Assembly (NCBI RefSeq): GCF_036321535.1
Contig: NC_087436.1
Span: 17,670,001 to 17,734,000, forward strand
Source: Camelus dromedarius
Lineage: Eukaryota
Length of the DNA stretch: 64,000 nt
Direction of reading: 5' to 3'
The notes under the pieces were generated by a model. It saw nothing but the letters and a program-made list of their open reading frames with translations. It was not told the origin of the DNA and ran no database searches. The position numbers and the translations under genes were made by a program. Of this stretch, positions 1,319 through 43,325 are shown in pieces. Each line of letters starts with the position of its first letter. Position 1 is the stretch's first letter.

Positions 1319-1767
1319 TATTACTTTTGACATCTTGGAATAATCAGGTGAGGTTCCCAATAACTATAATTTATGATAACTAGATGGACATGGTAATGTA
1401 TAGGTATCCACTTGTCATTCCTGGTTAAATATGTGTATATGTTCATGTTTGTTCTAGAGACATAAGGAACTCTGCAACCACAGCTGGTACATGAGTTCAC
1501 TGCGCCTACCTGAAACCAGGTGCATCAAGGTGGACACCTATGGGACCTGTGGGTGGATGGTTTCTGTTCCCCAAACAAAAAGTGGAGAGGAATAGTCATG
1601 ATGTATTGGGAAGCCAGAGACTGGTGACCTTGTATACATCGAGGTAAAGAGGGAGCAAAAAATTTAAATAAACAAAAGAATCTGCTAGAAGGAAGAAAAG
1701 GGCCAAAACAGACACTTAGAGAGAAGCTAAAACTCCATGAATGAGATAAAAACTGAACAAACAAAAA

Positions 1768-3167
1768 CATGTGGTAAGTCTATTTTCAGTCTTTTGAGGA
1801 ATCTCCATACTGTTTTCCATAATGGCTGCACCAAACTGCATTCCCACCAGCAGAGAAGAAGGGTTCCCTTTTCTCCACACCCTCTCCAGCATTTATTGTT
1901 CATGGACTTTTGAATGATGGCCATTCTGACTGATGTGAGGTGATACCTCATGGTAGTTTTGATTTGCATTTCTCTGATAATCAGCATACTGAGCATTTTT
2001 TCCTGTGCCTATTGGCCATTTGTATGTCTTCACCGGAGAATTGCTTGTTTAGTTCTTCAGCTCATTTTTGGATTGGGTTGTTGTTTATATATTCTGGAAA
2101 TTAATCCCTTGTCAGTCTCATCTTTTGCAAATATATTCTCCCATTCTGTAGGTTGTCGTTTTATTTTACTTATGGTTTCCTTTGCTGTGCAAAAGCTTGT
2201 AATTTTAATTAGGTCCCGTTTGTTTATTTTTGCTTTTATTTCTATTGCCTGGGTAGACTGCCCGAGGAGAATATTGCTAAAATTTATGTCAGATAAGGTT
2301 TTGCCTATGTTCTCTTCTCAGAGGTTTATAGTATCTTGTCTTGTGTTTAAGTCTTTAAGCCATTTTGAGGTTTTTTTGTTGTGTATGGTGTGAGAGTGTT
2401 CTAACTTCATTGACTTACATGCAGCTGTCCAGTTTTCCCAACATCATTTGCTGAAGAGACTGTCTTTACTCCATTGTACGTTCTTGCCTCCTTTGTCAAA
2501 GATTAATTGATCAAAAGCTTGTGGGTTTATTTCTGGGCTCTCTATTCTGTTCCATTGATCCATATGTCTGTTTTTGTACCATTACCATTCTGTTTTGATT
2601 ACTGTAGTATAATCCAGCAATCCCACTCCTGAGTATATATCCAGAGGAAACCTCAACTCAAAAAGATACATGCACCCCAATGTTCACAGCAGTACTATTT
2701 ACAGTGGCCAGGACATGGAAACAACCTAAATGTCCATTGACAGATGACTGGATAAAGAAGCTGTGGTATATTTATACAGTGGAATACTACTCAGCCATAA
2801 ACAAGAATAAAATAATGCCATTTGCAGCAACATAGGTGGACCTGGAGAATGTCATTCTAAGTGAAGTAAGCCAGAAAGAAAAACAAAAATACCATATGAT
2901 ATCAGTTGTATGTGGAATCTAAAGAAAAAGACAAACAAACTTATTTACAAAACAGAAACAGACTCACAGACATAGAAAACACACTTATGGTTACCAGCAG
3001 GGAAGGGGATAGGAAGGGATAAATTGGGAGTTCAAGATTTGCAGATACTAATTAATACATAAAACAGATAAACAACAAGTTTATACTGTATAGCACAAGG
3101 AACTATATTCAATATCTTGTAATAATATGGCGAAAAGAACTTGAAAATGCATATATGAAAAAAAAAA
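1768..3167 (+). mobile_element. Young lineage-specific LINE-1, 5'-truncated with 5' inversion (1768-2607 minus, 2608-3167 plus)
   Basis: Minus frame gives the ORF2 C-terminal motif [44 protein letters not shown]; plus part has the ORF2 end and 3' UTR with an A-run at 3158-3167. Confidence 0.93.
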
Positions 3168-25856: not shown

Positions 25857-28839
25857 TCTGAGCAAATCAATATAAGCCAAGCGGCAGAAGGAATGATAAA
25901 CCAACCAAAAACATGCTTCATACTTTCACAATATCGTTGGTGGAAAGAAAAAAAAAAAAAAACGACTACTTACAAATGAGTCTTTGTTATTAATTAAAAC
26001 AGTTTTGGTAGGAGTTCTACTTGGCAACCTGTTGTAAACAGCTAATTGGAGTTCATTCACATTGTTAAAAAAATGAAAACAAAGGTTTTCTTTTAAAATA
26101 GCCTAATCCCTTTTTCATTCTACTTTCATTCACTTCATTTATAGCAGTTTCATCTCAGTTAGTGAACATGTGGGATTTGGGCAACTAAGAGCCCAAATAT
26201 CATTACCCATTTTAATTCTTCTTGGGTTCATTTTCCCATCCAGTTTAGGATCTCCCCCACTGAACTTACTCATTTACTCAGGGGATTAAAAAAAACAGAC
26301 AAATGCTGCTGAGAGCAAGTCCTAAAGAGACTAATTAAGCAGAGATCCTAAGATGTGCCTCCTCCACTCCATTCCCACCCTTGGTAAGATAAACAGTTAA
26401 GAGTTTTAAGGTAAATATTATTATATAACATTCACTATAAATAACCGTGCCTTAAAAGCTCCAGAGTGGTATCTTTATGGGTCACTACCATGGTTGACAA
26501 TTAGCTGAGGTTGTCCAAAAGCCTTTGATGTACCTTGGTCCCTGCCACATTGCTGAAGCTAAAGAAGTTAAGAATTAGTGGTGATTGCACTCTCCTATTT
26601 CTAGAAAATGTAAAGAAACATAGATTCTGTGGGTGCCTTTCTTTAGTCACCAGTGATGGTCTGGTTTTCTATGGCAAATGAACAGACCCTGCACCATAGG
26701 AAAACAGAAACAGAGGCCATGAGGACAGAGATGGAGGTACAACGCCAGGAGTATACAGTAAGGCATAGGACGTGCAGCATGAGAGGGTTCTTTCCAGGGG
26801 AAGAAATAAAAGACAGGAAGATAGAAGAAATGAAGAGAAGTGTAGAAATGCATCATTAAAGCGGCAGAAAGAAAGAGCAGAGAAACATAGAGACACTGAG
26901 AAGGTGGAAGCCTTTTCAAAGCCCAAGCTGTTGCCATATAAACTGTCTGCATCTGGACCCGGGAAAGGAGGATCCCCAAAGTCTACCACACAGAACACCA
27001 GCACCATCCAACATGGCAGAAGCATTCCCGAGCACAAGCATATGACCCGAGTGGAATGCACTTCCCTGTTTCCAAGATGCGTAGCTTCAACAATCAAATC
27101 ATAATTGACTAACTTACATCTGATTCTATGTTTGCTAAGCAAGTTTTCTTTTGCCCATGGGGGAAAAATATTATACCAATCTAACAAAAACAAACACTGC
27201 AATCAACTTGACATTTGTATTTCTCATTATAAATGAATAATTGGCACAGATGGAAAAAGAAACAGGCAAGGAGGGGTGGAGAAGGCAGAGGGCGAGCCCT
27301 GGGCTAAACCACAGCTTGGGAATAACTAGCACATGGAAACCAGGATTCATCAAACAGAGCTTCACTTTGGTAGCCCCACCTTCACAAAGTGGGAGTTGCA
27401 TTGAAGACCAGATGAACAGAGTCAGATAAGAAGTCAAAAGAAACCTACTGGACGTAAGAGAGGAATTTGAGTAGGGACACAAATGAGGGGGAAATGACAT
27501 GGAGATCAAAACTGAAAAGGCAAAGAGAACTGAGACTCGAGAAGAAAGCATGGCATAAAGCAAGCTGTAAATATGGATGGACTTCAGGGCATTCTTTTTA
27601 TGTGGGGCTCAGTGAGATAAATTCCCAGGGCTCAGAATGAAACTGAAGGGAAATTCCCAGACCGAACACTTTAGGGGTCTTTTATTCCCAGCTTTGGGGC
27701 TACCAAAACTTCCCAGGGTATACAAACCCCATTCCAGCTGGCAGGTATGGCTGTTCTCTTGTATGTGTGGAGGAACAGAGTAATGAGTCTTCAGCCTTGC
27801 CTCACTCTCCATCTCTCCTGGCTCCAGCCCAAGCCCTAGCTCTGCTGGGAAGAACGCAGAGGACCATATAAAAGTAGATCAGACAGAAGAGAAAACAACT
27901 CCCTTAAATTTCCTTAATAAGTCACGTGTTCTAACCACTGAAAGAATTACTGCATTTGGAAGGATGGGGTCTGTCTCAAAAGACAGAGGAAGTATCCAGG
28001 GCTATCAAGGAGTTTCCCTGAGCCATGCTCTTCTATGAAGTGGACCTTCCAAGAATTGTGCTGGGGAAAAGAAAAGGTGCCACTCTTAGGTTATGCTGAC
28101 GTTGGATAAGTCACACTGCTACTTCCTACTCTTACCTTTAGTAAAGAACACTCAAGACTGATGTTCCTTAAAGAGAGACGGAAAAAAAGAAATACCTCAG
28201 TCTTTAGCAAGTGAGAGCTGGTGGGTGTTTCTGTAAGTTACTCAGTGTTTTTCGATCCTCGGAAGTTTCTACTCACCCTCCACCCTCCCATTAATTATGC
28301 AATCCTGTGCTTTGACTGATCTTTTCTACCTCTTGTTAGTGACTAATGATCTGTTGTTGAATTGAAAATATGAGTCCTATTCAGCCCTGAAAAAGAAATG
28401 CACTAAAATAAAGTACTCATGTAAGCACAGTGTTCTTATAAATCTCAGTATTTATGTCTTTAATACTCACCAAGTTATTTGGTGCTGAAAGTAACACTTG
28501 ATCTTCCTCTACAAGGACAAATGGCAAAGTCAACAATAAGAACCATACAGAGATCTCAAGGGGAAAGTTGCTAAAAGAAATGAGAACTCTTGTTCCCTAG
28601 AGCTTTTCCCAACAGAGGTGTGAAGATGGGGACCTTTTTCTTTGACCTGTGCCCAGCTCACTTTTTCAAAGTCCTTCTCCCATGATGCCCACTTTCCTCC
28701 CATGCTCCACCCTTCTCCCTGAATCTTGATTGCCCAGAGCACCTTGGAGCAATTCAGTTTGGGTAGAACTTCCTCGGGCAGTGTCCTACCTACATACAAG
28801 ACATGGGGCAACAGCAAGGTTGAAATCAACACGACCACC

Positions 28840-39690: not shown

Positions 39691-40932
39691 CGTCTTTGTT
39701 ACAGGTCCTACGTGTGAACAGTCAGCATCCCTTCTGTGATATAATCACCATGTTTAGGTGCTATTTCTTAGTGATAATATTTCATTCATAATTTTTTTTG
39801 TTGTTAGGGCCCAGGATAACAGATATTTAGCCACAGTAGACATAAGGCTGATAGCCATTAAAATATAGAAAATGAACTATTTAAAGGCATATATCACTTT
39901 ATAAGATGGTTAATTTATATAATTTTCCCATAGAATCACATGGTCAATTGTAACAGACCTTTTTACAAATCACTCATATTTTTTCACTAGTTACATATGG
40001 GAATGGACTATTTTATAAAAACCCATTCATTGAAGGCTTACATATCTAATTATCTGTCTACATGGATGTTTAACCTGAGATTCCTCCCAAAATTTATAGT
40101 TTTCTTAGATGATAAAGCAACAAGCATATTCAGTCCTGCTAACAGGAATGGCCCTAATTATCAACAACAGTAAATAAGACAATTACTTCCTGGTCAAGCT
40201 AAACTGCTAAATTCATTATTCTTCGACTGCCAACTACATGCTAGCTGCCCTGTTAGGTGACAGTTTCAGTCTTCACAGCTCTCAAGTTCAATGAGGAGAT
40301 GAACAATTAACCCAAATACACAAGATAGGATATTAAATGAAGGTGACAGGGACATTCCTAGGTATTATTTAAGCATGAAAGTTTAAGTGTAGAAACATCA
40401 AGGCAGCCTCCTTGGAGGGGCAACATCTAAACTGAGTCCTGCAGGAATACTGAGCACTATCCAGGCAAAGGGCAATGTGTTACAGAGAAATTGTCTTCAA
40501 ACACAGCTACTCAACTATCACATACTCCACTTCTCTTGCAGATTTGCCTTCTCCCCTGACTTGTCCAGTGTCCTCATTATGTCCCTAACTTTGAATGTCC
40601 AGTCAAAACTCCATTGGCACAAATCAAATCCCTTTATTCATCATAAAATTCCCAAATGTTCTCAAAATAGTATATGTCTAAAATACATTTTAAATTTAAA
40701 GGTTCTACCCAAGATTCGATTCTGTAATGATGAACTTCTCTATATTGGTTTATTGCGAGTATGTGTTTGGTTTGCATGAAGCACAAAGTTTGAACTTGAC
40801 TTCTTGTTGATTAATCTTAACTTGAATGTAAATGTAGCTTACTATTATGAGTTTAATTACGGTTGAGGTATTAGTCAGATTAAGTGAAGTTTTTGTTTAT
40901 ATCTGTAAAAAAATAAAATAAAATACATTTTA

Positions 40933-41279
40933 GGAGTTGGGAGATTGCCAAGATGGCAGCAGAATAGAAGGGTGCTGTGCTCACCTCTCCCATGAATACA
41001 GCAAAAACTATGCATACAGAACAAATCTCACAGTGTACCTATTGAACTTTGGCCGAATATCTCTTACAATAGGAAATAAAAGGAAATCCTCACAAAACCA
41101 GATAAACAAGTTTCTACTGTATAGCACAGGGAACTATATTCAATACCTTGTTGTAACCCATAATGAAAAAGAATATAAAAAGGAATATATGTGTATGTAT
41201 GTCTGACTGAAACATGCTGTGTGCCAGAAATTGTCACAACATTATAAACTGACTATACTTCAATTTTAAAAAAGTGCTT
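40933..41279 (+). mobile_element. Bipartite mini-L1: L1 5' terminus (40933-41101) joined directly to L1 3' terminus (41102-41279)
   Basis: Starts ggagttgggagattgccaagatggc (L1 5' end with YY1-type aagatggc); 3' part matches the 3' UTR of the young L1s in this window; perfect 11-bp TSD aatacatttta (40922-40932, 41280-41290). Confidence 0.85.
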
Positions 41280-41693
41280 AATACATTTTAAATATCAATT
41301 TATAAAGAGCAATGATAAAGTCCAAGGATAAATGTAGTTCAAATGCATCAGCAAAAAAGCAATGACAAGATTATCTCAATATTGAAAAAAATTCATCTTT
41401 ACCTCTAAATCAACAAAGTATGCCTTTCACACCTATTGAATTGACAAAAATTTTTAAAGGGAAAATTTGAAAAATCAAGGACACGAATTTTTGGTATTAG
41501 TGTCCACTATTTCCCTCCTTGGTGATGAAATCTGGCACCATGTTTGAAGAGTTATAAAAATAATCATAACTTTTGATCTAACGATCACATTCCTAAGAAT
41601 TTAAACTAATGAAATGATTTTTTTAAAACAAAGGTAAGAATAGTTTATGGACAAAAATGGTGATGATAAGAATGTTAATATAATCCTGTTTTT

Positions 41694-43325
41694 TTTAATA
41701 TATATTTTTATTGAAGTATAATCAGTTTACAATGCTGTGTCAATTTCTGGTGTACAGCATAATGCTTCAGTCATACATGAATATACATATATTTGTTTTC
41801 ATATTCTTTTTCACCATAAGTTGCTATAAGATATTGAATATAGTTCCCTTTGGTATACAGTATAAACTTGTTTATCTATTTTATATATATTAGTATTCAC
41901 AAATCACAAATTCCCAATTTATCCCTTCCCACCCCCTTACCTACTGATACCCATAATTTTGTTTTCTGTGTCTGTGAGTCTCTTTCTGTTTTATAAATAA
42001 GTTTGTTTGACTTTTTTTTTTTTTTTTACGATTCCATGTATAAGTGATATCATATGGCACTTTTCTTTCTCTTTCCGGCTTACTTCGTTTAGAATGGCAA
42101 TCTCCAGGTCCATCCATGTTGCTGCAAATGACATTATTTTATTCCTTTTTATTGCTGAGTAGTTTCCATTGGATAAACATACTGCAACTTCTTTATCCAA
42201 TCATCTGTCAATGGACATTTAGGTTGTTTCCATGTCTTGGCTATTGTAAATAGTGCTGCTATGAACATTGGGGTGCATGTATCTTGTCGAATTAGAGTTA
42301 CCTCTGGATATATGCCCAGGAGTGGGATTGCTGGATCATATGGCAAGTCTATTTTTAGTCTTTTGAGGAATCTCCATACTGTTTTCCATAATGGCTAAAC
42401 CAAACTACATTCCCACCAGCAGTGTAGGAGGGTTCCCTTTTCTCCACACCCTCTCCAGCATTTAGTTTGTGGACTTTTGAATGATGGCCATTCTGACTGG
42501 TGTGGGGTGATACTTCATCATAGTTTTGATTTGAATTTCTGGCGATGTTTATTGAGCATGTTTTCATGTGCCTATGGGCCATTTGTATGTCTTCATTGGA
42601 TAATTGCTTGTTTAGCTCTTCTGCTCATTTTTGGATTAGGTTGCTTGTTTTTTTCTTATTAAGTTGTATGAGCTGTTTATAAATTCTGGAAATTAAGCCC
42701 TTGTCAGCCTCATCTTTTGCAAATATTTCCTCCCATTCCATAGGTTGTCTTTTTGTTTTGTTTATAGTTTTCTTTGTGGTGCAAGAGCTTGTAAGTTTCA
42801 TTGTTAATTTTTGCTTCTATTTCTATTGCCTGGATAGACTGCCCTAGGAGAACGTTGCTAAGATTTATGTCAGATAATGTTTTGCCTGTGTTTTTTTCTA
42901 GGAGTTTTATAGTGTCTTGTCTTACGTTTAAGTCTCCAAGCCATTTTGAGTTTATTTTTGTGTATGGTGTGAGGGAGTATTCTAACTTCACTGATTTATA
43001 TGCAGCTGCCCAGTTTTCCCAACACCATTTGCTGAAGAGACTGTCTTTTCTTCATTGTATGTTCTTGCCTCCTTTGTCGAAGATTAATTGACCAAAAGTT
43101 TGTAGGTTTATTTCTAGGCTGTCTGTTCTGTTCCATTGATCCATATGTCTGTTTTTGCACCAGTACCATGCTATTTTGATGACTGTAGCTCTGCAGTATT
43201 ATCTGAAGCCTGGGAGGGTTATTCCTCCAGCTTCATTCTTTTTCTTCAGTATTGCTTTGGCAATTCTGGGTCTTTTGTGATTCCATCTAAATTTTAGGAT
43301 TATTTGTTCTAGTTCTGTGAAAAGT
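41694..43325 (-). mobile_element. Young lineage-specific L1, 5'-truncated
   Basis: Minus ORFs [15 protein letters not shown]...[22 protein letters not shown] and MKLEYSLTPYTKINSKW; TSD atcctgttttt (41683-41693) / atcctattttt (43326-43336). Confidence 0.93.

Follow-up and report, generated by a model that had tools for sequence, protein, structure and literature searches.

How could an L1 element lose its entire coding region and still sit in the genome between target-site duplications (TSDs)? The question is raised by a short element, hereafter the mini-L1, located in the window (the whole stretch of 64,000 nucleotides analysed here), which is AT-rich and dense in L1 pieces. An earlier note on this DNA proposed that the start of an L1 5′UTR is fused here to the end of an L1 3′UTR inside a perfect TSD, and that the fusion may stem from a spliced L1 RNA. 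Our analysis indicates that the mini-L1 is real, is present in more than one copy and is probably spliced.

Structure of the mini-L1

The mini-L1 comprises 347 bases, of which 341 are derived from L1 and six are not, and all its features are given on the plus strand. A 169-nt L1 5′UTR head (40933–41101), the putative exon 1, is fused directly to an L1 3′UTR tail (41102–41273), and 11-nt TSD copies stand on both sides (40922–40932 and 41280–41290). The tail consists of the putative exon 2 (41102–41267) and a residual A-run of 6 nt (41268–41273). For the six bases located between the A-run and the right TSD copy (41274–41279), a decayed tail, a tiny transduction or untemplated bases are the candidate origins.

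The head matched a profile of five long L1 5′UTRs in the nhmmer search (E = 1.7e-9). Its best local alignment with one long L1 5′UTR, L009, is identical at 105 of 151 positions and ends exactly at 41101; the alignment score was 83, while shuffled sequences reached at most 37 (n = 300). The tail (172 nt) displays 79–83 % identity to three L1 3′ ends within the window. The fusion proposed in the earlier note was thus borne out by the profile, the alignment and the sibling elements, with the correction that the tail measures 172 nt and is then followed by six non-L1 bases. Close to the L1 start, at 40949–40957, the head carries an intact CAAGATGGC motif, which we take to be a YY1 site.

An open frame of 90 codons runs across the join, but protein searches matched it to tail-derived peptides only. 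No convincing head match was found in any of the 71 matches or in the 150 listed of 361 representatives, with 195 of the 213 proteins anchorable and scored, and the frame was treated as a chance ORF.

Regarding read data, 17 of 24 public runs contain 97–98 % of the words sampled from 39900–41700, and setting aside ten possible source runs left seven rows from five studies. Contigs were compared with the locus from four of the 24 runs (X3, X7, X18 and X20), of which X20 leaves the flanks uncovered. Those of the locus itself extend beyond the join by 23 (X3), 24 (X7) and 30 letters (X18) with 0, 0 and 1 differences, all below the 31-letter threshold for bridging the join, and X7 is possibly source data of the window.

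Other elements in the window

The window holds a second L1 5′UTR head of about 120 nt on the minus strand (within 50421–49935, nhmmer E = 1.7e-12). It is followed by an inverted piece on the plus strand, which presumably translates like L1 ORF1, and then by the start of an ORF2-like sequence. This is a rearranged L1 made of a head, an inversion and a deletion. At 1765–3157 lies an L1 3′ end whose 5′ part is inverted: 1765–2607 runs opposite to 2608–3157, in the pattern of twin priming. ARAGORN reported a tRNA-Phe with anticodon aaa at 27623–27718 on the minus strand, with no Rfam match at the gathering score, and the call is likely spurious or a SINE-like relic.

Insertion site and an earlier insert upstream

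The TSD had been described as perfect, and the 11-mer is indeed exact at both positions. It also exceeds chance: matches of at least 11 letters turned up 28 times among 58,440 random pairs and 4 times among 2,790 AT-matched pairs. The hallmarks of target-primed reverse transcription are present, namely the 11-nt TSD, the 6-nt A-run and a T-rich cleavage site; the perfect TSD has an exact TTTT/A site 2 nt upstream.

The 11-mer has one more copy, at 40682; the window holds no others, and all three lie within 610 nt. The repeats are longer than the 11-mer, with 40679–40692 identical to 40919–40932 and 40682–40695 identical to 41280–41293. Outside the mini-L1, and considered here as its context, an older A-tailed insert, about 226 nt long (40693–40918), occupies 40679–40921 of the plus strand. 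It has its own left TSD copy at 40679–40695, a TSD of 14–17 nt and an exact TTTT/A site, and its right TSD also contains the left TSD copy of the mini-L1. The simplest and most likely reading is that of two insertions, in which the A-tailed piece would have come first and the mini-L1 would then have entered its right TSD. The reverse order is possible, yet less simple, as it requires two coincidences.

The upstream insert is probably a 5′-truncated retrocopy of the 3′ end of a transcript, with ATTAAG, perhaps the remnant of a poly(A) signal, 23 nt before its tail. One contig (X7#26) matches it over 40726–40902 with 14 substitutions (92 % identity) and continues in other sequence beyond that, thereby behaving as a source or sister copy of the insert would. 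A reading of the insert as a snoRNA was rejected.

The donor side

The earlier note had suggested a donor-like GTAGG after the left breakpoint, which we sought in relatives. Scanning metagenome contigs for the head motif recovered nine loci, comprising five long L1 5′UTRs, which we take to be cetacean-type, and four chance matches. The head-motif scan of genome contigs gave six matches, all by chance, and that of viral contigs gave none; all seven matches of the junction motif in viral contigs cover merely 19–20 letters. The readable sheets of nine supplementary files of PMC6675863 returned no match.

In all five long L1 5′UTRs, which are relatives and not the host's own parent L1, GTAGGG comes after the base that corresponds to 41101, and the junction (41101–41102) can be read as G|GT...AG|AT. 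We scored the site over nine positions against the textbook donor consensus. In L009 it reads CAG|GTAGGG and agrees at seven of nine positions, the top value among 19 GTs. A by-eye comparison with the pig L1 library (PMC6501411, supplement 1, the portion consulted) likewise placed GTAG after the homologous position in 11 L1B consensuses, a family of 12 members. GTAG stands in five of five relatives and in 11 pig L1B consensuses, but the letters before it are less favourable: TGG precedes the GT in four of the five long 5′UTRs and in all 11 pig matches, whereas the element has CAG. At the four TGG loci the site scores 5/9, and other GTs there score 6–7. CGG decays to either TGG or CAG, and this would bring the relatives and the element into line; a CGG version was seen in none of the five loci and in no match from the supplement. 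If the host's parent had TGG, the final CAG of the element would need two changes or an origin on the tail side, and the ends would then be non-canonical.

Sites of the G|GTAxG type are scarce in these relatives, with five matches in 4,719 nt, each the sole one in the first 0.7–1 kb of its 5′UTR, a pattern recognised post hoc. From dinucleotide densities, the probability of finding GT...AG at a random pair of breakpoints is 0.002–0.007. The second L1 head in the window (50421–50304) ends short of the donor position. In one of the long 5′UTRs (L007, minus strand), about 40 nt are duplicated in tandem upstream of the donor-like site.

The acceptor side

The first base of the tail corresponds to the base after an AG in long L1s. 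This AG immediately precedes the tail in all four sibling 3′UTRs examined in the window, and the consensus of the loose ends of long L1 contigs at 41100 (114–420 contigs per run, agreement 0.54–0.63) ends at AG in four of four runs, in agreement with the claim that the junction lies exactly after an AG. The polypyrimidine tract had been called weak, and rightly so, with pyrimidines at only 8–10 of the 20 nt upstream in the four siblings.

The loose-end consensus also contains a motif that the earlier note does not mention, CTAAC or CTAAT in all four runs, with the branch A about 15–19 nt before the join, about 19 nt for CTAAC, and judged by its letters the motif is branch-point-like. Among the siblings the situation is mixed: CTAAT is located 11–15 nt upstream of the join in two of the four and the other two have no branch motif, while in three of the four no further AG occurs within 18 nt before the acceptor AG. 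A good branch point followed by the first downstream AG makes a plausible acceptor despite a poor tract. One sibling has AAAACAG before the tail, where an A-rich microhomology of 4–7 nt is possible.

At 41104, 147–241 contigs per run (X3, X7 and X18) start at the tail start, preceded by A-rich letters of low agreement, which suggests many L1 3′ pieces beginning at or near the acceptor position. One X18 contig connects 40959 with 41104 and so fuses some 27 nt of head start to the beginning of the tail, its short side covering 21 letters; relatives have GTAAGA a few bases from the equivalent of 40959. This might reflect another donor used with the same acceptor, but the record is single and weak and was not counted.

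The join in contigs from other loci

We searched for the join elsewhere with the likeness threshold lowered to 80 and took a piece as bridging when it had at least 31 letters on each side. Among the 32 pieces listed of about 86,950, nine from other loci pass the join by at least 8 letters and four records from three other loci bridge it. Two of these records, X3#19 and X7#28, are the same 1,891-nt contig with identical figures (87 head and 33 tail letters), and the others are X18#2 (118 and 36) and X18#3 (65 and 48). Near misses were X3#18 (91 and 27) and X20#9 (29 and 79); three further pieces cross the join with one side limited to 8 or 18 letters and were not counted. X3#19 continues for 1,767 letters beyond the sequence of this locus and X18#2 for 222. 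The bridging pieces differ from the mini-L1 by 9–17 % substitutions, which marks the other copies as old and not as alleles, and carry 4–11 gaps. From the aligned contigs we infer that their junction is identical to that at 41101/41102.

Together with the mini-L1 locus, at least four loci carry the join, and perhaps tens do. Head depth near the join amounts to roughly 35–70 single-copy equivalents in three runs. This is not a copy number but an approximate upper limit in which long L1 heads are counted and copies below 80 % likeness are missed. The presence of the join at three or more other loci argues against a one-off deletion. At 41069–41077, one head contig in X18 has a depth of about 320, compared with 37 for single copy, and may represent a near-identical multi-copy group of heads.

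Origin of the join

The best explanation, to which we give an even chance, is repeated splicing of L1 RNA from the 5′UTR to the 3′UTR, followed by insertion in trans and ending in dead-end copies. A full-length L1 would be transcribed from its own 5′UTR, and the spliceosome would link a donor about 169 nt into the 5′UTR with an acceptor some 170 nt short of the 3′ end. Everything in between, from the remainder of the 5′UTR through ORF1 and ORF2 to the beginning of the 3′UTR, would leave as a single intron. The product would be a polyadenylated RNA of about 340 nt, and since it encodes no L1 protein, ORF1p and ORF2p would have to be supplied in trans by other L1s; insertion would occur by target-primed reverse transcription, in this case with the A-rich TSD of the older insert as the target. 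Several such events from full-length parents would yield a small set of old copies sharing the same join, probably dead ends that did not beget further copies. Taking all splice readings together, including the self-propagating founder and part of the single-copy reading treated below, it is likely that splicing made the join. Repeated splicing covers the GT, the AG, the branch motif and the recurrence with a single cause. The spliced origin proposed in the earlier note has thus gained support from these features and remains unproven, as the GT is seen in relatives and mostly has TGG, not CAG, before it.

One or a few spliced founders, driven by Pol II from the retained L1 start and copied again in trans, could have become a self-propagating, ORF-less, bipartite SINE-like family in a lineage with few young SINEs, a possibility that the earlier note had raised. 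The join at three or more other loci, the intact CAAGATGGC motif and the head depth, rough ceiling as it is, would fit such a family, and the available text of PMC5786205 describes Pol II-transcribed bipartite non-autonomous LINEs from other clades. We nevertheless consider it unlikely. In human, SpIRE97/622 retains a comparable 5′ start of 97 nt but little promoter activity, with about 7-fold versus 267-fold in a reporter (PMC5860796). Moreover, an RNA of 340 nt would seldom be 5′-truncated, so that many of the copies bearing a head would be fused ones even if none propagated itself, and several of them could arise without a master element. A single founder could also have arisen while the RNA was reverse-transcribed, by template switching or internal deletion at short A-rich or AG microhomology, and then have been amplified, which would make it a strict-sense SIDE. 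It would explain the acceptor without a pyrimidine tract and the AG that ends both sides with AAAA just before, and microhomology-bounded internal deletions have been proposed for CR1 SIDEs (PMC6740152, as far as its accessible text goes). However, the left breakpoint would then coincide by chance with the sole G|GTAxG-type site per 5′UTR (again a post hoc pattern), the element's last 11 nt keep the length of the head while a switch within AAAA requires an extra inserted base, and the recurrence would additionally demand self-propagation. This origin appears quite unlikely.

The other loci could also be independent, roughly similar deletions or over-extended alignments, leaving the mini-L1 as a single spliced or deleted L1. 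The small share of pieces listed (32 of ~86,950), the lowered likeness threshold, and the 33–48 tail letters and several gaps of the bridging pieces leave some room for it. Yet these records carry 65–118 head letters, three of the four stop at a contig end inside the high-copy tail core just as the contigs of the locus itself do (the fourth is 3 letters off), and X3#19 was found again with the same figures as X7#28; we hold this reading to be very unlikely. That a full-length L1 stood at the site and was deleted after insertion is hardly credible, as neither breakpoints at the GT and AG of relatives nor recurrence at other loci would be expected from a random genomic deletion.

If splicing is the true origin, L1 splicing can delete the entire coding region and still leave genomic copies. 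It would provide a case outside primates with an acceptor that has no pyrimidine tract, and would widen the SpIRE model (SpIRE, spliced integrated retrotransposed element) to a fully trans-dependent class. The consulted portion of PMC5786205 leaves open why ORF-less bipartite LINEs arise from few clades, and a set derived from L1 allows a direct test: private mutations in the fused copies would point to a family, and their lack to repeated dead ends. Such copies would be easily missed, since repeat annotators would split each into two L1 fragments.

Comparison with known elements

No comparable L1 derivative devoid of ORFs turned up in the literature searched, which left aside Repbase, Dfam and most subscription journals, and an earlier description is possible. 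Camelid genomes contain 1.6–1.8 % SINEs, almost all of them MIRs, according to the accessible text of PMC8605555, and the Repbase name SINE_VV occurs in the portion of PMC6726744 available. A Pol III SINE was rejected as an identity for the mini-L1, its head being an L1 5′UTR and not a tRNA, 7SL, 5S or other small RNA. Rfam gave no match at the gathering score in the window, with three sub-threshold matches in 40600–41400, and ARAGORN found no tRNA at the mini-L1.

Like processed pseudogenes, the mini-L1 would derive from a Pol II transcript that had been spliced and polyadenylated before L1 proteins inserted it in trans, but its source RNA is L1 itself. HAL1 (half-L1), as described in PMC5786205, likewise derives from L1, is non-autonomous and combines 5′ and 3′ parts, but it retains ORF1 whereas the mini-L1 has neither ORF. 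With the bipartite ORF-absent LINEs and SIDEs (Bov-A, RIME, Vingi derivatives, R2 SIDEs and CR1 Persaeus) it shares the reduction to 5′ and 3′ ends without any ORF. In the 2018 survey, so far as its available sections go, such elements come only from RTE, Ingi, Vingi and R2 (PMC5786205), and CR1 is a further source through Persaeus (PMC6740152, in part). Unlike them, the mini-L1 belongs to the L1 clade and has splice-like ends, while theirs are ascribed to internal deletion and they propagate as families.

The closest comparison concerns SpIREs. According to PMC5860796, retrotransposition of spliced L1 RNAs is established in human with 131 copies, one class requires ORF1p in trans, and the elements are judged dead ends; their acceptors at 622, 790, 853 and 976 lie in the 5′UTR or ORF1, and ORF2 is kept. 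The mini-L1 resembles them in its apparent 5′UTR donor, its TSD and A tail, its T-rich endonuclease-type site, the retained first part of the 5′UTR and one join apparently common to several copies. It differs in that its acceptor lies in the 3′UTR and has no pyrimidine tract, that both ORFs are lost and about 340 nt remain, that both proteins would be needed in trans, that its splicing is putative and that its host is not a primate. In the way it works the mini-L1 is SpIRE-like, but since both published classes keep ORF2 it belongs to neither.
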